A DNA stretch of 10,034 bases from UHGV virus genome UHGV-0306824. One strand, written 5' to 3'. The notes under the pieces are model-generated. The model did no database searches. It was not told the origin of the DNA and saw nothing but the letters and a program-made list of their open reading frames with translations. The DNA comes from a virus. Each line of letters starts with the position of its first letter. Positions within the stretch are counted from its first letter, which is position 1. Positions 1-10,034 of this stretch are shown here, one piece after another. A program made the translations under genes and the position numbers.

Positions 1-183
1 GCGCGTACAAGCCGCTATATCACTGACACGACAAAAGAGCGTTATCACCAGTGCCAGAACGTGAATTGCAGCGCCACGTTCATCACTTATGAGTCGGTAC
101 AGAGATACATCGTGAAGCCTGGAGAAGTCCACGCCGTGAGGCCGCACCCGTTGCCGTCAGGGCAGCAAATTATGTGGATGTAA
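1..183 (+). CDS. ogr: Ogr-type zinc-finger late-gene transcription activator, C-terminal 60 codons (5' end lies outside the window)
   Basis: Frame 1 reads ARTSRYITDTTKERYHQCQNVNCSATFITYESVQRYIVKPGEVHAVRPHPLPSGQQIMWM then TAA at 181-183. This matches my recollection of the C-terminal part of the 72-aa P2 Ogr, including the second Cys pair (CQNVNC). The overlapping 71-aa minus-strand ORF (87..302) has no comparable signature. Confidence 0.85.
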   Translation, partial: ARTSRYITDTTKERYHQCQNVNCSATFITYESVQRYIVKPGEVHAVRPHPLPSGQQIMWM

Positions 184-192
184 TTACAAACA

Positions 193-222
193 GGAAGCCC
201 CTCAGTCGAGGGGCTTTTTTGT
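193..222. terminator. Intrinsic terminator hairpin between convergent ogr (+) and D (-)
   Basis: AAGCCCCTC (195-203), loop AGTC, GAGGGGCTT (208-216), then a T-run 217-220. It lies 12 nt after the ogr stop and about 30 nt beyond the D stop (253-255). On the minus strand the hairpin is followed by the weaker tract CCTGTTTGT. Confidence 0.55.
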
Positions 223-252
223 CTTATAAAACAAACAGATAAAATAAAAACA

Positions 253-1416
253 TCACTCATCATCTTCTGTTTCGTACTCCACATCAGAAAGCCTGACCTC
301 AAGCTCTAAGGACGTCGTGAAGCCGCTATTATTCAGAAAATGTGTCACCTTAGTGATTGTCCAGTCCTGCTCGTCTATGACGCGCTTAAAGCCTGACACT
401 CTGACCGGTGTTTCCGTGTAAATATCAGCACGACCAGTGGCAAGGCTGATGGAGAACTCCGCAACGCCCCGTTGCAGTTTATCCCACTTCGCCTGAGCGG
501 CGCGCATGGCCTGCGCTTTCGTGGCATATACCGTGGTCAGGGCAAAAACGTTGTCAGCTTCACCGGCCATGTATTCACCTTCGCGCGCTTCCGGTACTTT
601 TGGCGCTTTCTTCTGCGTGACTGGTTTCGCTTTCGGGTGCTCCAGTGCGCGCAGGTGTTTCTCTTTCTTTTTGCGTTTCAGTTTTACCTTCTGCTTTTGC
701 GGCTTCGGGTCTTTGGTGTGTAACCACTTTGCCGTTACGCCGGTATAGGCTCCACGGTCAGCAATCGCAAAATGATGGCGGTCGCCGTCGCTGCGGGTTA
801 TGGTGACCTGCGGGATTTTTTTACCGCTGGCCGTCACCCCCTGCCCCGCTTTGAGAAACAACAGTTTTCCCATTTTTACCGACACCTCACCGCCGTTGCG
901 TTCTGCAAGACGGGTCAGGAATTTCGCATCAGACTCCTGCGACTGGTCGATGTGCGGGATTTTAATTCCGGCCAGTGACGGAGCGACACTGGCTTCCAGC
1001 CTGTTACGGGAGGCTATCGCCTCAACAATCGCACCGAGCGTGGTGTCATGCCAGGAGCCTTCACGGCGGGAATTGAGCGTCCCGCGGAAATCTGCACTCC
1101 GGGCGCGGATGGTGACCACATCCGGCGCGCCCCGGTGTTCAACCTCATCAACGGTGAATTTCCCTTTGCATACCAGGGCAAAACCTTTCCAGCCGATATA
1201 CACCGTCAGGACAGCGCCACGAACCGGCAACCCGACCTGCCCGTCGGCATCGTTCAGTTCAATATCAAGCTGGTCAGCCTCAAAGCCCCGGTTATCCGTC
1301 AGGGTCATGCTCATCAGACGGTCGCTGATATTGCCGGTAATATCCCTGCTGTCGAGCATCAGCATGTAATCCGGCGTCAGCGTACTACCTGCATCAAATG
1401 TCAGCGCGTCCAGCAT
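253..1416 (-). CDS. D: P2 gpD-family tail protein (late control gene D)
   Basis: 387-aa ORF, last gene of the FI-FII-E-T-U-D block and the same length I recall for P2 gpD. Its ATG (1414-1416) overlaps the U stop by one nucleotide (TAATG), indicating translational coupling. It contains a Lys-rich linker at about aa 235-275. Confidence 0.88.
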   Translation of the reverse strand: MLDALTFDAGSTLTPDYMLMLDSRDITGNISDRLMSMTLTDNRGFEADQLDIELNDADGQVGLPVRGAVLTVYIGWKGFALVCKGKFTVDEVEHRGAPDVVTIRARSADFRGTLNSRREGSWHDTTLGAIVEAIASRNRLEASVAPSLAGIKIPHIDQSQESDAKFLTRLAERNGGEVSVKMGKLLFLKAGQGVTASGKKIPQVTITRSDGDRHHFAIADRGAYTGVTAKWLHTKDPKPQKQKVKLKRKKKEKHLRALEHPKAKPVTQKKAPKVPEAREGEYMAGEADNVFALTTVYATKAQAMRAAQAKWDKLQRGVAEFSISLATGRADIYTETPVRVSGFKRVIDEQDWTITKVTHFLNNSGFTTSLELEVRLSDVEYETEDDE

Positions 1417-1895
1417 TATCCCGCCCCCGTCATACCCGTGAATCTGGTCGCCATACTGCCAGCCTTACCGATGAGCGATTCCGCCTGTTTACCGATATCG
1501 CCATAAAGCGCGGCCAGTGATTCATCCACGCGGGTGAGCGACAACGTAAAATCAATTTTCCGGGGTGTGCCGTCTGCAAAGAAAATACTCCCTGTTTCAC
1601 TCACCCTGCTGATGACATACATGCCGTAAATCATGCCGGTGCCATCCAGCAACGGCCACGCCCGGCCTTCCTCTGCCATCAGCCTGAGCGTGGTCATCGT
1701 CAGCTTCCCGCCGGTCAGTTCGGGATAAAGCACGCCGGCAAGCGTCATGTTTTCCTCACCCACACCGAGAAACTGAAAGGCATCCCGTTTACCGATACGG
1801 GGATTTGACGGCCAGCGATAATCTGATTCGCGCTGCATGGTCTGGTGTGGCAGCGTCTGGCGCATAAAAACAAACATACCTAACGCGAGCATCAT
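1416..1895 (-). CDS. U: P2 gpU-family tail protein
   Basis: 159-aa ORF between T and D in the canonical P2 order; the length matches gpU as I recall it. Its stop overlaps the D start. Confidence 0.88.
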   Translation of the reverse strand: MMLALGMFVFMRQTLPHQTMQRESDYRWPSNPRIGKRDAFQFLGVGEENMTLAGVLYPELTGGKLTMTTLRLMAEEGRAWPLLDGTGMIYGMYVISRVSETGSIFFADGTPRKIDFTLSLTRVDESLAALYGDIGKQAESLIGKAGSMATRFTGMTGAG

Positions 1896-1909
1896 TTTTC
1901 GTCACCTCC

Positions 1910-4357
1910 TTAACCGTCATGCATCATGCTGGCACGGGCGCGCGCACGTTTATCCCGCTCGTATTTTTCGAGCGCATCCTGTAACTGGCGGTCGAGCTGT
2001 GTCCCCGGCGCAGTACCACCCGTCAGGCTGATGTGATATTCGTTTTTACTCTGGTCTACATAAGAGCGGCCAGCCGGTGCCGTGACCGGCTGATAAGCCT
2101 GATAACCTGCATAAGAGCTGGTCGCCGGAATATAACCACCGGTGCCATACGTGGCGGCATGAGTCCTTGCGGCGGTCTGGTCAAGTGTGTCTGACTCTTT
2201 GTTGATAACACCGAGTTTTTCCAGTACCCAGTCAATACCGCTGCGCAGTTTGTTGAACGCATTAAGCGGCAGCCTCAGCGCGTCAGCCAGTGCCTGCCCG
2301 AACATGACCCCCGTGTCACGGCAACTGTTCAGGGTGTCCTGAGTGGCTTTGACCGGGACAATCAGGTTTTTAAACCACTGCCACGCGGCCTGTAACTTTT
2401 CACCCAGCCAGTCAAACACCGGTTTCAGTGGCGTGAACAGCTCCCCCACCGGCGCAAATGCCGCTTTCAGCCCTTCAACCACACCGCCAAAGAATGCGCT
2501 GACAGGCTCCCAGTATTTACGGATAAGCAACGCCCCGGCGACAATGGCGGCCACCACAGCCACAACCGGCCAGCTAATCGCCCCGATGGCCGTCATAACG
2601 GCACTACCAACCGTCGTGAAGATTGCCCCCATTGCGCCTGCTGCCGCGATGATGGCATTGATGCCAGTGATAACCGGCCAGGCTACAAGACCAATTGCAC
2701 CGATGATGCCAATAAGCGCCAGCGCGCCACCGGCAATGATGCCAATGGTTGACGCCAGTGATTTGTTTTTCTGGATCCAGCCGTCGAGTTTTAACACATA
2801 CTTTGTGGCCGTCTGTGTGAGCTTACGCAGTGCGCCTTCCTGCTGGTCAAACAGGTCTGTCCCCACCGCCTCATAAGCGGACTGAAACTCCTTAAAGTCA
2901 CCGCCGAGGTTGTCCTGCATGATATTTACCAGCTCGGCGGTCTTCCCGTCTGAGGCTTTAAACTCAGCGGTCAGTTTGTCCAGCTTTCCGGTTGAGGCGG
3001 CAGTCATCAGCACGGCGGCGGCTGAGCTGGCCTCCTCCCCGAAAATGGTTTTCATGTATTCAGCCTGCTGGGCAGTACCGAGCCGGTTTTTCTCAAAACT
3101 GGCCTGCATTTCTTTCAGAATGGTAAATACTGGTCGGGTATTCCCCTTACTGTCTGAGGTTTTCACGCCAAGCTCTTTGAGTGCATCCCATGCTTTTCCC
3201 GTCGGTGCCTGCAGGCGACTTAACACGGCACGGCTTCCCGTCCCCGCCATTGAGCCTGTGATTTTTGCATCATGCAGCGCCCCGACCATTGCGGCGGTTT
3301 CTTCAATGCTGACACCGGCATTTTTTGCCACTGGTGCGGCATAGGTCAGCGCATCGCTCATGCCGTCAAAATCAGCGGCGGTTTTGTTCATCGTCATGGA
3401 GAGAACATCCCCGATATGAGCGACCTTATCGTTTGAAAGCTGAAAGGCGGATTTCATCCCCATCAGCAGGGCGGCGTTTTCTTCCATCGTGCGGCGGTTC
3501 GCCAGTGCCATATTCAGCGTGACCGGCGTTGCCGCCTGAATGGCATCAACATCCCCACCGGCTTTCGCAATGATAATCTGTGCACCGGCTGCATCATCTG
3601 CCGAGGCGGCGGTGTTGTCGCCGAGCTGGCGCGCCTGCTTGCGGAGCGCGGTCATTTCGGCGGAGTCTTTTGCCACTCCGAGCACGGCCTGCAATTCTGA
3701 GTTTTTCTGCGCAAACTCATAACCGGGCATCAGCAACTTAACTCCGGCCATCGTTCCCGCCGCCGCAATCCCCACACCGGCAGCGCCCACTGAGGCCATA
3801 TTTCCGGCCAGTTCCTTGCCTGCCTGATAACGCTGTTTTACTGCGTTAAGTTTTGCCTGTTGCGCACTGACACGAGCCAGCGCGTCACGCTGACGGTTAA
3901 GCTGTGCGGTGGTTTCACTGATACGGTTTTTCAGTCCCTGCTCATCATGTGCAAGATTGCGGGTATTAATTCCCACAGCGGCCAGTTCCCGCTGCTGGCG
4001 TTTAATGGAATCTGTCAGGCGGTTATATTTCGCCTGTAAGTCCTCCGCCGCACGCTTTGCGGATTCCAGCACTTTCGCCTGAGCACGGGTCGGACGTTCG
4101 GTATTTTTAAACTGTGTGGCAAGGGCTTCGGCCTCCTGCCGTGCCTTTTCAAGTGCATGACCAGTCACGGCGAGCTGTGCACTGGTCTTGCGGAATCCCT
4201 CAATACGGGATGCGTGACCGTTCAGCTCGCGCAGTGATTTTTGTGTTTCCCGGATATCCCCCGACAGCGACCTGCTCGCTGTACGGATGGATTTAAACGG
4301 GCGGGATGCCTGGTCAACAGCCCTGAGCAATACCTGTAATTTTACATTGTTACTCAT
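1910..4357 (-). CDS. T: Tail tape measure protein (P2 gpT-like)
   Basis: 815-aa ORF. The N-terminal half is coiled-coil-like and rich in A/Q/R/K/E; a long Gly/Ala/Ile-rich hydrophobic segment sits mid-protein (IGIIAGGALALIGIIGAIGLVAWPVITG...), as is typical of tape measure proteins. It lies directly downstream of E/E', and its ATG (4355-4357) overlaps the E' stop. Confidence 0.9.
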   Translation of the reverse strand: MSNNVKLQVLLRAVDQASRPFKSIRTASRSLSGDIRETQKSLRELNGHASRIEGFRKTSAQLAVTGHALEKARQEAEALATQFKNTERPTRAQAKVLESAKRAAEDLQAKYNRLTDSIKRQQRELAAVGINTRNLAHDEQGLKNRISETTAQLNRQRDALARVSAQQAKLNAVKQRYQAGKELAGNMASVGAAGVGIAAAGTMAGVKLLMPGYEFAQKNSELQAVLGVAKDSAEMTALRKQARQLGDNTAASADDAAGAQIIIAKAGGDVDAIQAATPVTLNMALANRRTMEENAALLMGMKSAFQLSNDKVAHIGDVLSMTMNKTAADFDGMSDALTYAAPVAKNAGVSIEETAAMVGALHDAKITGSMAGTGSRAVLSRLQAPTGKAWDALKELGVKTSDSKGNTRPVFTILKEMQASFEKNRLGTAQQAEYMKTIFGEEASSAAAVLMTAASTGKLDKLTAEFKASDGKTAELVNIMQDNLGGDFKEFQSAYEAVGTDLFDQQEGALRKLTQTATKYVLKLDGWIQKNKSLASTIGIIAGGALALIGIIGAIGLVAWPVITGINAIIAAAGAMGAIFTTVGSAVMTAIGAISWPVVAVVAAIVAGALLIRKYWEPVSAFFGGVVEGLKAAFAPVGELFTPLKPVFDWLGEKLQAAWQWFKNLIVPVKATQDTLNSCRDTGVMFGQALADALRLPLNAFNKLRSGIDWVLEKLGVINKESDTLDQTAARTHAATYGTGGYIPATSSYAGYQAYQPVTAPAGRSYVDQSKNEYHISLTGGTAPGTQLDRQLQDALEKYERDKRARARASMMHDG

Positions 4358-4777
4358 TCGTGTTTCCGCTTCGCCGGAGTGCCTTTTCGCGCCATGTGAT
4401 GAGTTCGGTCAGGCTCATGGGATACAGTTCTGATGGCGGCCAGTGAAATATCACTGCCACATCCGCCATCAGGTCATCGACCGAGAGATTTTTCGGAAAC
4501 GTTACTGCACCGAGTTCGGCGACAAAAAACCGACCACCTTACCGGCCAGCGCCACAAGGTCAGGCAGTTCCAGCGCGGCGACCTCCTGCTCGGTCAGCAT
4601 CGGTGCCGTCATGCGCGGCAGTACCTTAATCAGTGCATCGACTTCGGAGTTTGCAACCGCAGCCAGACTGACACCGCGCAGCGTCCCCGCACTGGGTTTC
4701 ATCAGCGTGACCTGTTCGATAACCTGCTCACCACGCTTGACCGGATTGTCCAGGGTAATCACATTTTCTTTGTTCAT
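4350..4777 (-). CDS. Tail assembly chaperone E+E' made by -1 programmed ribosomal frameshift (predicted 142 aa)
   Basis: After the minus-strand heptamer T TTT TTG, the -1 frame stays open for 57 codons (VAELGAVTFPKNLSVDDLMADVAVIFHWPPSELYPMSLTELITWREKALRRSGNTNE) and ends at TAA 4350-4352, which overlaps the T start codon. The arrangement parallels lambda G/GT and P2 E/E+E'. Confidence 0.7.
4502..4777 (-). CDS. E: Tail assembly chaperone E (P2 gpE-like), zero-frame product
   Basis: 91-aa ORF between FII and T, ending ...KVVGFLSPNSVQ*. It contains the slippery heptamer seven codons before its stop. Confidence 0.85.
   Translation of the reverse strand: MNKENVITLDNPVKRGEQVIEQVTLMKPSAGTLRGVSLAAVANSEVDALIKVLPRMTAPMLTEQEVAALELPDLVALAGKVVGFLSPNSVQ
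4523..4529 (-). other. -1 frameshift slippery heptamer T TTT TTG (plus strand reads caaaaaa)
   Basis: Read directly: the zero-frame codons are GGT TTT TTG (G-F-L of ...VVGFL). This is a classical X XXY YYZ site, placed where tail-chaperone frameshifts occur. Confidence 0.7.
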
Positions 4778-4805
4778 GGTTTTCTCACTTCTGAATCAGG
4801 GTTAA

Positions 4806-4826
4806 CCGGTCAGCCAGGCTGACCGG
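4806..4826 (-). other. Intercistronic stem-loop between FII stop and E start
   Basis: Perfect 10-bp inverted repeat CCGGTCAGCC a GGCTGACCGG, 8 nt past the FII stop (4834-4836) and about 50 nt before the E ATG. No U-tract follows on the minus strand, so it is not a canonical intrinsic terminator. Confidence 0.4.
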
Positions 4827-4833
4827 ATGAAAA

Positions 4834-5352
4834 TTACAGGCCGATATTTCGGCGGTGTTGCTCCAGCCGGTCGACGCCGTTCACCTTCTCAATCATGTTG
4901 ATGGTGTCGATTTCGACCAGCTCCTTACCGTCCATCGTCAGCCGGAAATAGGTGCAGACCACGGAGATTTTCGACTCGGTGTCTTCTCCCTGTTTACCCT
5001 CGCCGGTGTCGATTTCTTTCTGACGTCCACGCATGACCACTTCGACGGCCACCGTTTCGCCGGTATCGTCGCGCTGGTAAGAGCCTGCAAAACGAATCGG
5101 CACGGCATCCACACCGGTTGAGGCGTAAAGCTCCCAGATAACCGAATCCGGGAAGCCCCCGAGCGACCACTCCATTGACAGCGCATCGTCATCAAGGCCG
5201 AGGTCTACCGGTGCGCTGCCGTTCATCCCCGCACCGCGATAGTTTTCGAGCTTACGGGTCAGTTTTGGCAGCGTGACGGACTTTGCAACGCCCTGATAGC
5301 TGTAGCCGTTCAGAAAGACGTTCATTAACTTGAGTTTGCGCGGCATTGCCAT
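4834..5352 (-). CDS. FII: Major tail tube protein (P2 gpFII-like)
   Basis: 172-aa ORF immediately downstream of the sheath gene; the 12-nt spacer contains GGAG. Length matches P2 FII as I recall it. Confidence 0.9.
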   Translation of the reverse strand: MAMPRKLKLMNVFLNGYSYQGVAKSVTLPKLTRKLENYRGAGMNGSAPVDLGLDDDALSMEWSLGGFPDSVIWELYASTGVDAVPIRFAGSYQRDDTGETVAVEVVMRGRQKEIDTGEGKQGEDTESKISVVCTYFRLTMDGKELVEIDTINMIEKVNGVDRLEQHRRNIGL

Positions 5353-5364
5353 CGGTCAGGCTCC

Positions 5365-6555
5365 TTAATTGCTGTTAACCGAGGTGACCAGATTTGCCAG
5401 GTATTTATCGGTAATACGCTGGCGCAGGGTCAGGTTTTCGAGAGGAGGCACCGGGGTATAGTCGTAGTCGATATACAGTTTTCCGGCCTTGAGGGTTTCC
5501 GCATCGTTGGATTCTTCGCTGAACCAGCAGGTCGCATCCACGATATAGCCGTTTGTTTTCAGCTCACGGAATTTGGCATTGATGCCGTCAACGATGTCGC
5601 GAATCAGCGTTGCGGTGATGGGCTTGTCCACCGCCCACATGTGCGCCTCAGCCATCGTGTCGGCCAGCACCTGCGCGGTGCGGGTGTAGTTTTCAAAGAG
5701 GAACAGCGGGTCATCAGAGCAGGTACGGTTACCCCAGAAGCGGAAACCGTCGCGGCGAATCAGCGTAGTGACGCCTGACTCATTAAGCAGGTCAGCATCG
5801 GTGCCGGACTCCTGCAAATCCCAGAATACAGAGGCGCTGATGCCGGTAACACCGTTCACCCCGACATTGGACAGCGTTTTATGCCAGCCCTGCTCCTGGT
5901 CGATTTTGGCACGCAGCCCCAGTGCACGGGCGGTGGCATACGCGGTGGCGGTGGTACTGGTGACCGTATCCCATGCGAGGAAATCCGGCCAGATGACCAT
6001 CAGCTCACGCTGGCTGAAATTCTGGCGGTAAGCTTTCACCTCGGAAATGGTTTTACAGCCCCATGCGCTGATATACCCGAAAGCGCGCAGCTTCTGACAG
6101 ACTGATGCCAGTGCAACAGCCACCTCTTTGGTGTCCAGTCCCGGCACGCCGAGAATACGCGGTTTAACACCGGTTACCGACTCCGCCGCCAGCAGGGCTT
6201 TCAGTCCGGTGTACTGACCGTTTTCGTCGGTGGTGCCGATGATATTGGAAACGGTCTGCGCGAGTTTCGTTTCTTCGTCGTCGCCGGTGCCGTCTTCCAC
6301 GCGCACAACAACGGTGACCGGTTTTGACTGGTCAGCGATGGCCTGTAACGACGCCGCCAGCGTGCCTTTTTTACCGGCCTTTGCAATTGCGCTCTGCACA
6401 TTAGTAATCAGCACAGGTTTATTGAGGGGGAAGGTTTCCGCATCCGCATCGCTGGCCGTGCAGACCATGCCGACAATGGCAGTGGATACGGTGGAAATGA
6501 CGCGGGTGCCGTCGTTAATCTCCAGCACCTGCACGCCGTGATGATAGTCACTCAT
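5365..6555 (-). CDS. FI: Contractile tail sheath protein (P2 gpFI-like)
   Basis: 396-aa ORF, first gene of the block, with GGAG about 8 nt upstream of its ATG. Length matches P2 FI as I recall it. Confidence 0.9.
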   Translation of the reverse strand: MSDYHHGVQVLEINDGTRVISTVSTAIVGMVCTASDADAETFPLNKPVLITNVQSAIAKAGKKGTLAASLQAIADQSKPVTVVVRVEDGTGDDEETKLAQTVSNIIGTTDENGQYTGLKALLAAESVTGVKPRILGVPGLDTKEVAVALASVCQKLRAFGYISAWGCKTISEVKAYRQNFSQRELMVIWPDFLAWDTVTSTTATAYATARALGLRAKIDQEQGWHKTLSNVGVNGVTGISASVFWDLQESGTDADLLNESGVTTLIRRDGFRFWGNRTCSDDPLFLFENYTRTAQVLADTMAEAHMWAVDKPITATLIRDIVDGINAKFRELKTNGYIVDATCWFSEESNDAETLKAGKLYIDYDYTPVPPLENLTLRQRITDKYLANLVTSVNSN

Positions 6556-6663
6556 CCGTTTAACTCCGTGGTTAATGGGTGAGTGGTATTTTCAGTTGTG
6601 CCGGAGATGTCAGGCTATTTGTCCCGGTTGGCTAATCGACAGCACAACCACCGGTAAAGAAAA
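6556..6663 (-). promoter_or_regulatory. Putative late promoter and RBS region for the FI operon (expected to be Ogr-dependent)
   Basis: Only the position is supported: about 100 nt between the upstream terminator hairpin and the FI start. I searched for a perfect TGT-N12-ACA activator-site dyad and found none. Confidence 0.3.
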
Positions 6664-6682
6664 GGCGGGCAATTTGCCCGCC
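6650..6682 (-). terminator. Intrinsic terminator (minus-strand orientation) upstream of the FI promoter region
   Basis: GGCGGGCAA t TTGCCCGCC palindrome at 6664-6682. On the minus strand it is followed by TTTTCTTTA (reverse complement of 6650-6663). On the + strand there is no good T-tract. Confidence 0.5.
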
Positions 6683-6881
6683 TGTCCTGATTTGTACTCA
6701 CTCATTTTCCGACTGACAATTTACATAGCCCAAACGCTATCAAATCTGACAGTCTGCTTTGGGTAAACTGATAATGGGCAGAGCTTTGTATGGCTAACTT
6801 CAGCATGATACCTTACAGTCAAGCTGACAAAAGGCGGAATGATTATTCGTTGATACACATCCTCCTGTAAGGAAACAAAGC

Positions 6882-7652
6882 ATGTATAAAGAACTTATAG
6901 AACAGAGACTGAATGAGGCAAAAGCCGCCAGAGCTGCGCTGAGCAAGATTAATGGTGTAATTGTCGAAAAAACACACAACCCTGACCGCGGACTGTATCT
7001 CGTTAATTATGCCAATTTACTTATGAACAGGCAGATAGACATCTTCGATGATGCGCTTCTCCTCCTCGAAAACGAACGATACCAAAGCGCTTGTATTGTT
7101 AGCCGAGGAATGATTGAAACTCATGCCTTCTCACGACTCTTAAACAAGAAAGTAGAGAAAATTTTGACTACCCAAAATGGACACGCAAGTGTAGATAACG
7201 CTATCGAAGTTATATTGAACTTTACGAATAGTTCTCGATTTAAAAAGTCAGAGCAAGAAAAGATTCAGAAAGAAGTATTTGACCCGAACGACTACATGTT
7301 TACTGAGGAGGCTAAATATCGTTTTGAAAACCTACTTGCTGTCAGTATGCATGTGATGACTGCTTTACGCGAACTCTATAAAGATGAGATGAAGCAGACT
7401 AATCAGATGGAAAGTGATTTTGAACTGACTTATGACATACTTAGCGAATATGTTCATCCTTCACAAACGAGCATCTACCACTACTACACACCTGAAACCC
7501 ACTTAGTTCCTACTTCGGTTGGTAATATTCATACTTATGTGCATGCTCAGCTACAATGTGTGAGAGCGCTACTTTTCATATTAGAAGCAAAGAGTCAACA
7601 TTATTGGTCTACACAGTTAGCAAATGAGATGACCAAACGAGCTAAAGAGTAA
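6882..7652 (+). CDS. Hypothetical protein, 256 aa; cargo gene at the G-FI moron position (P2 Z/fun-type site)
   Basis: Uninterrupted ORF with AAGGA 8 nt before its ATG. It is visibly more AT-rich than the flanking tail genes, opposite in orientation to the late operon, and predicted mostly helical. No motif I can assign, apart from an R-x5-H stretch (SRGMIETH). Confidence 0.75.
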   Translation: MYKELIEQRLNEAKAARAALSKINGVIVEKTHNPDRGLYLVNYANLLMNRQIDIFDDALLLLENERYQSACIVSRGMIETHAFSRLLNKKVEKILTTQNGHASVDNAIEVILNFTNSSRFKKSEQEKIQKEVFDPNDYMFTEEAKYRFENLLAVSMHVMTALRELYKDEMKQTNQMESDFELTYDILSEYVHPSQTSIYHYYTPETHLVPTSVGNIHTYVHAQLQCVRALLFILEAKSQHYWSTQLANEMTKRAKE

Positions 7653-7767
7653 GGCCTAAGCCCTGCAATGTGTTTATTTGAAAAATATTTCAATTTTTTC
7701 TTTGTATGCTGTAAATGACCTGAGTCCCTCTGACCAGAGAGCCTTGATGTTATCAATGTCCGCTCCT

Positions 7768-7900
7768 GGCACAGAGCGGACTGTCAGATTAGGGGTTACT
7801 CTGTGTTATAGATATGTGAGCTCACACCAGAGCTTATACAGCTTATTGTGGCATTTCCGGCCATTCAGGATTTGCAGGATCCACACGACTGACCAGAACG
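7768..7900. repeat. R1 copy a: 133 bp comprising the last 19 codons of a minus-strand tfa plus 75 bp of its 3' flank
   Basis: About 92% identical by eye (roughly 10 mismatches) to 8456-8588 in the same orientation. Confidence 0.8.
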
Positions 7901-7997
7901 CTGTAGCGTTCCCATGATTCCAGTCGGCTACGCTCCTCATCTGTTGCCATGTTCAGTCTGACCGCGCGCTCCAGCGGCAAAATCACGGATTCGGCAT
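7843..7997 (-). pseudogene. Tail fibre assembly protein (P2 gpG / Tfa family), 3' remnant only
   Basis: Minus strand reads [50 protein letters not shown], a Tfa-family C-terminus. The frame runs only 57 codons back to an in-frame TGA (rc of 8017-8019) with no start. Homology to the + strand tfa copy stops abruptly at about 7997. Confidence 0.7.
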
Positions 7998-7998
7998 T

Positions 7999-8106
7999 AT
8001 TGTTCAGGATACCGGCTCAAACTCTGCCGATAGCATTGGTGGCATATATTACAGACCGGTGCAGAAATACATTAACGGGACATGGTATAACGTAGCGCAG
8101 GTATAA
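7999..8106 (+). pseudogene. Possible 3' fragment of a tail-fibre (H/Stf-like) gene, directly upstream of the + strand tfa
   Basis: Frame reads ...[36 protein letters not shown] with its stop 3 nt before the tfa ATG (TAA ttt ATG). That is the usual fibre-chaperone spacing, but the assignment rests on context only. Confidence 0.35.
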
Positions 8107-8250
8107 TTTATGCAGCATTTAAAAAATATTACGGCGGGTAATCCAAAAACGGTTGAACAATATCAATTGACAAAGAATTTTGATGTTGTCTGGTTTTTTT
8201 CAGAAGATGGTAAGAACTGGTACGAAGAACAAAAGTATTTTGCTGATGAC

Positions 8251-8367
8251 ACGATAAAAATAGCGTACGACAAAGATAATATCATCCACTATGTGGAAAA
8301 GGATGTGACAGCTATCAGACCGGATGGATTAAGTGTTGTTGAAGTGGCGGATATTACTGCTAACCGA
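8251..8367 (+). repeat. tfa-internal 117-bp direct repeat, copy 1
   Basis: 115 of 117 identical to 8586-8702; the mismatches are A/G at two positions (gacaaAgat vs gacaaGgat; catccActat vs catccGctat). Confidence 0.85.
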
Positions 8368-8455
8368 GCTGGAGCTGGTTGTGTTTAATGAAAAATTACA
8401 ATTTTAATACGTCCGCTGTACACCCTTAGCTGCCGTTAGCTTAACGTCCGCAACA
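8368..8455 (+). repeat. R2 copy 1: 88-bp element at the breakpoint inside tfa
   Basis: GCTGGAGCTGGTTGTGTTTAATGAAAAATTACAATTTTAATACGTCCGCTGTACACCCTTAGCTGCCGTTAGCTTAACGTCCGCAACA, identical to 9130-9217. Confidence 0.85.
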
Positions 8456-8588
8456 GGCACAGAGCGGACTGTCAGATTAGGCTTTACTCTGTACCATAGA
8501 TATGTAAGCTCACACCAGAGTTCATACAACTTATTGCGGCATTTCCGGCCATTCAGGATTTGCAGGATCCACACGACTGACCAGAACG
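8456..8588. repeat. R1 copy b: inverted tfa 3' end (last 18 codons, ..[18 protein letters not shown]) plus 3' flank, lying inside the + strand tfa
   Basis: About 92% identical to 7768-7900. It encodes on the minus strand exactly the C-terminal residues that the + strand tfa lacks. Confidence 0.8.
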
Positions 8589-8702
8589 ATAAAAATAGCG
8601 TACGACAAGGATAATATCATCCGCTATGTGGAAAAGGATGTGACAGCTATCAGACCGGATGGATTAAGTGTTGTTGAAGTGGCGGATATTACTGCTAACC
8701 GA
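8586..8702 (+). repeat. tfa-internal 117-bp direct repeat, copy 2
   Basis: See copy 1; it shares ACG (8586-8588) with the end of R1b. Confidence 0.85.
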
Positions 8703-9129
8703 CGGGCGGACATTTCAGGGGGCTGGATGTTTAAGGACGGAAAAGTGATTAAACGCATTTATACGGCAGAGGAATTGCAGCAGCAGGCAGAAAACCGGAA
8801 AGCCAGACTTCTTGCAGATGCTGAATCCGTGATTTTGCCGCTGGAGCGCGCGGTCAGACTGAACATGGCAACAGAGGAGGAGCGCACACGGCTGGAGGCT
8901 TGGGAACGCTACAGCGTTCTGGTCAGTCGTGTGAATTAATAGTCTTTATTAATCATAATATTTAAATAATTAGGCTGCTTTTTTAATTGAACTATAAAGA
9001 ATAAGCAACCCACTCAATAAGATACACTTTATTTATTCTGGTGCAATATTAAAAACGCATAATAAGTGTCATTTTCATTGCTCGTGAATGCCATTACTCT
9101 TAAATCGTGATCCGGTTCAAAATTTAGAG

Positions 9130-9217
9130 GCTGGAGCTGGTTGTGTTTAATGAAAAATTACAATTTTAATACGTCCGCTGTACACCCTTAGCTGCCGTTA
9201 GCTTAACGTCCGCAACA
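9130..9217 (+). repeat. R2 copy 2: 88-bp element abutting the 5' end of the DarT-like frame
   Basis: Identical to 8368-8455. Its last 11 nt supply the in-frame codons R-P-Q just before the DarT-like sequence; an in-frame TAA sits at 9204-9206. Confidence 0.85.
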
Positions 9218-9218
9218 T

Positions 9219-9545
9219 GTTTATCATTTTACATACATTGATAATCTTGAGGGAATTATAAAAAATGGATTACTTAGTACAAATTTAAAATCAAATAGAG
9301 GCATTATTCATAAAGATATAGCAAATAATGAAATACAACACCGTCGTAGTGAAATGAGGGTCACTTGTGGTCCAGGTGGAGTGGTCCATGATTATGTGCC
9401 TTTTTACTTCACTAAAAGATCTCCCATGTTACTTAATGTTATTAAGAAAAAAAACGTAGATCAAGAAGGAATTATATATCTTGCGATACCAATAGAGGCG
9501 ATAGAAGATAAATCAGTAGTTTTTTCAAATTCTTACCACATTTAA
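9219..9545 (+). pseudogene. DarT-like DNA ADP-ribosyltransferase toxin (DUF4433-like), N-terminal part; no start codon and truncated at a rearrangement junction
   Basis: Frame reads VYHFTYIDNLEGIIKNGLLSTNLKSNRGIIHKDIANNEIQHRRSEMRVTCGPGGVVHDYVPFYFTKRSPMLLNVIKKKNVDQEGIIYLAIPIEAIEDKSVVFSNS then SYHI*. The motifs YHxT..NL, GGxxHDYVPFYF and SPML match what I recall of the DarT family. There is no ATG/GTG/TTG between the upstream TAA (9204) and the conserved N-terminus; the first ATG is at 9354. Confidence 0.55.
9418..9534 (+). repeat. R3 copy a: 117-bp perfect direct repeat inside the DarT-like frame
   Basis: Identical by eye to 9685-9801 (GATCTCCCATGTTACTTAATG...TTTTTTCAAATTCTT). Confidence 0.85.
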
Positions 9546-9605
9546 ATCATGAAAGTAATGATGATCAAATGATCTAGAATCACAACGAACATCAAAATTA
9601 TTAAA

Positions 9606-9685
9606 CCCATATTTTTTCAATAGCTGTGCAACATGCGTTTTCACGCAAAGATTCCAAACAACAATAAATGAAAAATTATTGAAGG
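9606..9685. repeat. Inverted copy (reverse complement) of 9955-10034, the DarT-like 3' coding segment
   Basis: Perfect 80-bp inverted repeat; I checked 9611-9660 base by base against 9980-10029. The pairing reaches the window edge, so the repeat may extend to 9535 on this side. Confidence 0.85.
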
Positions 9686-9801
9686 ATCTCCCATGTTACT
9701 TAATGTTATTAAGAAAAAAAACGTAGATCAAGAAGGAATTATATATCTTGCGATACCAATAGAGGCGATAGAAGATAAATCAGTAGTTTTTTCAAATTCT
9801 T
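9685..9801 (+). repeat. R3 copy b
   Basis: See R3 copy a. Confidence 0.85.
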
Positions 9802-10034
9802 CTGCAAATACTTTAACGCCACCAACATTTTACTCTAATGCTGATGATTTAAATAAGCTAAATTGGGATGCAATTGACAGTAGAGTGTGGATCCCAAAGA
9901 CCGAAGGAGTAAAACAGCAAAAAATGGCAGAGTTGCTTATTCATGATGAAATTCCCTTCAATAATTTTTCATTTATTGTTGTTTGGAATCTTTGCGTGAA
10001 AACGCATGTTGCACAGCTATTGAAAAAATATGGG
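9693..10034 (+). CDS. DarT-like toxin, C-terminal portion; frame open to the window end (3' partial, lacks the N-terminal region)
   Basis: From ATG 9693: MLLNVIKKKNVDQEGIIYLAIPIEAIEDKSVVFSNSSANTLTPPTFYSNADDLNKLNWDAIDSRVWIPKTEGVKQQKMAELLIHDEIPFNNFSFIVVWNLCVKTHVAQLLKKYG, 114 codons with no stop. The ..KMAELLIHD.. helix fits the Glu-containing catalytic motif of ADP-ribosyltransferases. It is absent from the ORF track only because it runs off the edge. Confidence 0.5.
   Translation, partial: MLLNVIKKKNVDQEGIIYLAIPIEAIEDKSVVFSNSSANTLTPPTFYSNADDLNKLNWDAIDSRVWIPKTEGVKQQKMAELLIHDEIPFNNFSFIVVWNLCVKTHVAQLLKKYG
9955..10034. repeat. Right arm of the inverted repeat (coding orientation of the DarT-like gene)
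   Basis: Reverse complement of 9606-9685. Confidence 0.85.

Follow-up and report, generated by a model that had tools for sequence, protein, structure and literature searches.

The window, here meaning the whole 10,034-nt stretch of viral DNA that was analyzed, is made up of P2-like prophage sequence. Most of it lies in a single collinear core, and on both sides of this core the same kind of sequence is present as short pieces that alternate in strand (Table 1). The left 6.5 kb is the minus-strand late tail operon, in which T encodes the tape measure, FII the tube and FI the sheath, an arrangement seen in many E. coli prophages. The core aligns without gaps, over 7,775 nt, to E. coli E47 (L002, 1664-9438) at 98.0% identity, and is 99.6% identical to a scaffold from a gut metagenome (L015). 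Relative to E. coli 30EVA1 (L001), sequence up to 7997 runs on the minus strand and descends to L001 position 9496. At a finer scale the core is a mosaic, in which 1-1323 is identical to 30EVA1, 1387-1560 is unlike both references, and 1601-7904 is nearly identical to scaffold L015. A Logan contig (L013) differs from the core at only 2 positions in 4,751 nt.

Between the sheath gene FI and tfa of these prophages is a variable cargo hotspot, which in the window holds the gene for a 256-aa DUF5677 protein, a candidate accessory or defence gene. The contig collection has 212 blocks that list an identical protein, and in all ten of the loci displayed the flanking phage genes are intact, with a 175-aa tfa and a tail-fibre gene in their normal orientation. 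Look-ups of the DUF5677, T and U proteins retrieved a set of close relatives (L003-L018), all of which are collinear or end at a repeat boundary. The 30EVA1 prophage (L001) represents a second P2-like type with other cargo in the same tfa-FI hotspot, consisting of a DarT-HD fusion of 444 aa (Pfam DarT and HD) followed by a 371-aa macro-domain protein (L001 10063-12509). This DarTG cargo sequence was found in three of 5,426 complete E. coli genomes, all of them with tfa intact and normally oriented. In the 30EVA1 reference the capsid, sheath and tube genes (L001 1-94, 12994-14713) are annotated as frameshifted pseudogenes, and these could reflect real decay or homopolymer errors in the assembly. 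The ~140 nt downstream of tfa, which occur twice in the window (8443-8588 is a 90% copy of 7755-7900), are about 90% conserved between prophages with different cargo and include a GTCCGC...GCGGAC hairpin; this stretch is probably the left boundary of the cargo hotspot or a tfa terminator.

Table 1. Features of the window in order of position, with the strand and the reference match of each piece.
Feature	Position	Strand	Content and match
Segment 0	1-223	+	Reverse-complemented ogr region; 100% to 30EVA1 (L019 2757-2535, minus); followed by junction J223
Collinear core	223-7997	-	D, U, T, E/E', FII and FI (minus) of a P2-like prophage; Pfam-annotated
DUF5677 cargo ORF	6882-7652	+	256 aa; within the core
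tfa, last 155 nt	7843-7997	-	End of the core
Segment 2	7998-8367	+	Last 109 nt of H (7998-8106) and tfa codons 1-86 (8110-8367); DUF5677-type allele
Direct repeat, copy 1	8251-8367	+	End of segment 2; E47/L003-type bases, A at 8274 and 8288
Segment 3 (R2 and R1b)	8368-8588	-	tfa 3' end (8531-8588) and spacer (8368-8530); 100% to L001 9813-9593
Direct repeat, copy 2	8586-8702	+	Start of segment 4; 30EVA1-type bases, G at 8609 and 8623
Segment 4	8586-8933	+	tfa codons 48-163, 30EVA1-type; 100% to L001 9264-9611; Pfam Caudo_TAP, E=1e-27
Segment 5	8932-9217	-	Reverse-complemented tfa-DarT spacer; 100% to L001 10011-9726; last 88 nt (9130-9217) are the second R2
Segment 6	9218-9534	+	DarT CDS from reference position 10092; 100% to L001 10092-10408; Pfam DarT
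Segment 7	9534-9685	-	Reverse-complemented internal DarT; 100% to L001 10713-10562
Segment 8	9685-10034	+	DarT, restarting ~117 nt back; L001 10289/10292-10641, 99.7%; runs off the end of the window

The pieces outside the core are faithful copies of prophage sequence in a scrambled order. Segments 0 and 3-8 are each 100% identical to intact prophages, the single apparent mismatch of segment 8 (at 9684) falling within a junction overlap, and the strands alternate from one segment to the next. Internal segments are 151-370 nt long. At the left end, ogr has the opposite orientation to that seen in all relatives; 223-1479 then follows the plus strand of L019 from position 2845, and the ogr-D spacer has lost 87 bp. 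At the right end of the core, J7997 joins reference positions that lie 492 bp apart on opposite strands. Segment 2 corresponds to a relative with DUF5677 cargo (window 7989-8367 against L003 11611-11232, minus; 99.5%), and its equivalent in L001 is 9001-9380. Further to the right, segments 3 and 5 overlap at reference positions 9726-9813, which is the 88-bp R2 repeat (8368-8455, with a 100% copy in segment 5). An Rfam scan of 6500-10034 returned a single sub-threshold chance match, and R2 is not a known RNA element. Segment 6 lacks the DarT start codon (reference position 10063), and segment 7 and 9955-10034 are perfect inverted repeats of each other over at least 80 nt. DarT also contains a direct repeat of ~117-120 bp (9415/9418-9534 and 9682/9685-9801), the copies of which flank the inverted piece of segment 7. 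The genes at the joins are badly damaged: of H only the last 109 nt are left, tfa and DarT are both split, DarT also has no start codon, and ogr is inverted with an 87-bp deletion before D.

The plus-strand tfa gene carries the 117-nt direct repeat noted in the preliminary description (115/117 identical, 98%, at a spacing of 335), and a repeat of this length and similarity is far beyond chance. It is the overlap of two plus-strand pieces, both of which include reference positions 9264-9380. Its only mismatches pair 8274 with 8609 and 8288 with 8623. The second of these is a His/Arg difference (His in copy 1, Arg in copy 2) and the other is silent (Lys), and both are known differences between the tfa alleles of the two prophage types. 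Copy 1 is of the DUF5677 type (99.5% to L003) and copy 2 of the 30EVA1/DarTG type (100%), which bears out the earlier proposal that two alleles had contributed. The DNA between the copies had been described as two elements, R2 and R1b. That content is present, but as one uninterrupted 221-bp stretch, the exact reverse complement of the last 58 nt of tfa and the 163 nt downstream of it in 30EVA1. The 335-bp block is not an inserted element: what lies between the repeats is nearby P2-like prophage sequence in reverse complement. Its flanks had been judged far too long for a transposon target-site duplication, and this point holds. The block has neither terminal repeats nor an ORF matching any family. 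Removal of 8368-8702 does yield the predicted 164-aa ORF, but not a clean Tfa. The native protein has 175 aa and its last 12 residues are lost, the ORF ending in ...SRVN and a stop codon because a further strand-flip join at 8933 removes the last 12 native codons from segment 4. The tfa 3' end is also present in inverted form, as a 119-nt inverted repeat (7879-7997 and 8818-8936).

Eight strand-flip joins were located, at 223, 7997, 8367/8368, 8588, 8933, 9217/9218, 9534 and 9685, and every one of them connects opposite strands. In the intact reference the two sides of each join lie, in the same order, 310, 492, 433, 329, 400, 366, 305 and 273 bp apart (mean 364, SD 74, CV 0.20). Their distribution has a peak and does not decay; if eight distances were drawn from an exponential with the same mean, all of them would fall within 273-492 bp with a probability of about 4e-6. 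Microhomology at the junctions amounts to 1, 1, 0, 3, 2, 0, 1 and 1 nt (sum 9), with none at 8367/8368 and 3 nt at 8586-8588; the second value rises to 6 nt if one base is counted as allelic. When inverted joins in this sequence were simulated as a null, the summed microhomology gave p=0.16, so that the joins are essentially blunt, with microhomology at the level of chance; the generous reading gives p=0.011. No inverted repeats were already present at the breakpoints in the intact reference, and no sequence is common to the eight junctions. The shortest segment, at 151-152 nt, is close to the length of a 151-nt Illumina read, at most a hint of read-length quantisation.

The scrambled arrangement was sought in a range of other data sets. 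None of the 5,426 complete E. coli genomes covers at least 80% of 7650-9300 or of 8900-10034 (BLAST); the best matches to the scrambled region are the three DarTG-type genomes, and they match it as collinear, same-strand pieces only. Among 50,697 GenBank phage records, BLAST retrieved collinear relatives and no example of the scrambled structure. Exact junction patterns, covering four of the eight junctions with each searched in one to three collections, gave no match in GTDB representatives (two junctions), IMG/VR (two) or JGI metagenomes (two). The products of five junction-spanning ORFs were likewise absent (0/5) from a set of ~15 billion proteins, which does contain the window's D, U and FI proteins. 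The searched collections do not include the window's own source, which weakens the argument from uniqueness. An uninterrupted tfa allele, which the preliminary description had advised looking for, is carried by all the relatives that were examined, and none of the searches turned up a second case of the interrupted form. Metagenome contigs stop near the scrambled parts: scaffold L015 ends at window position 7904, and contig L013 covers 1831-6581. At these places the sequences of two co-occurring P2-like prophages converge to near-identity, and assemblies break.

While the segment map and its junctions are direct observations, their cause has to be deduced from geometry and uniqueness, and on those grounds the zigzag is probably a technical chimera that arose during sequencing or assembly. 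The 117-bp repeat is real in the sequence, but as a feature of the tfa gene it is most probably not biological and, if the chimera reading is correct, neither tfa nor DarT is interrupted in the organism. The window from 7997 to its right end, together with 1-223, consists of 150-370-bp pieces of P2-like prophage (the H 3' end, tfa, the spacer, DarT and ogr) joined on alternating strands, and each switch is a jump of a few hundred bp when measured in the intact reference. Wherever a forward piece restarts upstream of the point at which the previous forward piece stopped, a direct repeat is produced, which accounts for the 117 bp in tfa and the ~117-120 bp in DarT; an overlap between two reverse pieces gives the 88-bp R2 repeat in the same way. 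The underlying cause could be read mates joined without reverse-complementing, or inverted chimeric molecules formed during library preparation or amplification, and such joins might enter a contig where two related prophages leave the assembly ambiguous. An origin at the ends of library fragments is suggested by the combination of opposite-strand joins, peaked distances and essentially blunt junctions. The preliminary description had raised an assembly problem as a caveat, and an assembly problem is indeed the most likely outcome, though as a chimera rather than a collapse of repeats.

Several features of the window favour a technical chimera. The joins occur at both ends of an otherwise perfectly collinear core of 7.8 kb, and they involve two prophage types that carry different cargo (DUF5677 or DarTG) in the same hotspot. 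Strand alternation is strict, and the identity of segments 0 and 3-8 to intact relatives is complete. The structure is absent from every other data set searched, and the relatives are all intact. On the other side, chaining seven or eight such joins in one contig would need very low true coverage or an unusual pipeline, and graph assemblers normally prune edges of this kind. Unsplit SRA spots concatenate read mates, and this kind of concatenation appears to fit the window better than classic multiple displacement amplification (MDA), a weaker candidate because MDA junctions usually show at least 2 bp of complementarity, which is seen here at only two or three of the eight junctions. In published MDA data, 85% of chimeras are inverted with an intervening deletion, nearby segments are favoured, and 93.5% of the proximal inverted chimeras have at least 2 bp of complementarity (PMC1855051). 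Inverted chimeric concatemers are known to disturb assemblies (PMC12225698). Fragmentation enzymes are reported to generate library molecules from nearby opposite-strand DNA, and foldback and ligation artefacts to occur in long reads (PMC7531576, PMC12870357, PMC13141652).

The main alternative is a real, one-off rearrangement, in which serial inter-strand template switching (microhomology- or break-induced, of the DUP-INV-DUP type) took place in a cell with two P2-like prophages, scrambled the tfa-DarT hotspot and left behind a dead prophage remnant. We regard this as unlikely. In its favour, all the inserted pieces have been copied, inverted, from templates in nearby sequence, and the complete identity of the pieces to intact relatives would make the event very recent. 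Two alleles are involved, and many E. coli hold several P2-like prophages (a genome may have them at as many as 6-8 places). At least 269 bp separate the inverted repeats that result, a separation that is tolerable in E. coli. Weighing against it is the need for eight switches, some at both ends of the 7.8-kb core and some between the alleles of different prophages. Neither the narrow 273-492-bp spacing nor chance-level microhomology is expected of fork-based switching; all the affected genes are destroyed, so that selection offers no reason for retention; and the structure occurs in no other genome or contig searched. We know of no bacterial precedent for so dense a zigzag. In a stronger form of the proposal, the zigzag would record a burst of serial inter-strand switches in vivo that was confined to the P2-like defence hotspot and copied from two co-resident prophages, much as chromoanasynthesis might look in a bacterium, and this we consider quite improbable. 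Stalling of replication at the locus of DarT, an ADP-ribosyltransferase acting on ssDNA, could conceivably have provoked such a burst.

The explanation offered originally, in which two tfa paralogues underwent one unequal or illegitimate recombination and foreign DNA was trapped between the 117-bp copies, has very little probability left. It does accommodate the finding that the copies bear the diagnostic bases of two alleles (His/Arg at 8288/8623), but the products of unequal crossing-over are tandem duplications or hybrid genes, and such an exchange would not leave downstream sequence in reverse complement between the repeats. The intervening piece in the window is the reverse complement of sequence that lies 213-433 bp further downstream. 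The same combination of a duplication and an inverted piece recurs in DarT (9415-9801), and there are more strand flips at 223, 7997, 8933 and 9217; a recombination event confined to tfa leaves the seven other flips and the identical structure in DarT unexplained.

Programmed inversion of tail-fibre genes (by a Gin/Cin/Pin/Min system or a shufflon), caught in a scrambled state, is more improbable again. The 3' ends of tail-fibre and tfa genes are classical substrates of invertase systems, and the window does have the 119-nt inverted repeat of tfa 3' ends. Against this, the window contains no invertase ORF, and the ORFs to the right of FI are DUF5677 and fragments of tfa and DarT. The crossover-core motif, AAACCNNGGTTT, is at chance level, with 8 matches against 5.4 expected, none of them at a junction. 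The flips extend to DarT and ogr, inversion cannot create duplications, and the junctions share no sequence; moreover, the three DarTG-type genomes all have a single orientation. When the window was unscrambled by hand, by inverting it between the 119-nt tfa repeats, tfa became collinear with the left arm again but the duplications remained. A diversity-generating retroelement, with the 117-bp copies as template and variable repeats, can practically be dismissed: at the two differing positions copy 1 has A and copy 2 has G, but only 2 of 42 adenines differ, both being ordinary allele differences among intact relatives (the two-allele origin of the mismatches removes this reading), the window has no reverse transcriptase, and the repeat lies in the middle of a chaperone gene, not at the 3' end of a receptor-binding gene. 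Transposon insertion was rejected on the grounds that the block 8368-8585 is a reverse-complement prophage copy with no terminal repeats and a 117-bp flank, where a transposon would be expected to leave a duplication of 2-14 bp, and a retron on the grounds that its defining genes are absent and allele differences explain the mismatches.

If the zigzag is an artefact, the window is no evidence that tfa paralogues have recombined, that the DarT toxin is interrupted, or that there is an invertible tail-fibre cassette. The signature itself, which is easy to spot, could then serve to filter similar windows: strictly alternating strands, breakpoints ~270-490 bp apart, blunt joins, and pieces that are 100% identical to intact relatives. 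If it is real, replicative template switches are clustered in the window at a density unusual for a bacterial genome, and they would merit study as a route by which prophages decay.

The whole window derives from the architecture of the intact P2-like hotspot, which lies between tfa (G) and FI and carries either DarT-HD with a macro-domain protein, or DUF5677. Identity to 30EVA1, E47 and metagenome scaffolds is 98-100%, but order and strand are scrambled in the window, whereas the relatives are all collinear. Concatenated read mates and library chimeras (enzymatic 'dual-stranded' molecules, FFPE strand-split reads and long-read foldbacks) resemble it in joining nearby opposite strands at the scale of a fragment, with little or no microhomology and without reproducibility between samples. 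They differ in that a single read usually has one such junction, while the window has eight chained in 10 kb. Chimeras produced by MDA also share inverted joins, an intervening deletion and proximity, and can chain into inverted concatemers in long reads, but their junctions mostly show complementarity of at least 2 bp and their distances fall off from zero, in contrast to the chance-level complementarity and the peak at ~360 bp seen here. Replicative template switches, of the quasipalindrome kind or with DUP-INV-DUP products of the FoSTeS/MMBIR type, are similar in that they leave a templated, inverted insertion between duplicated copies of the recipient sequence. The known bacterial cases are single events that span tens of bp and have clear microhomology, whereas the window would require eight events, each spanning hundreds of bp, with two alleles and blunt junctions.
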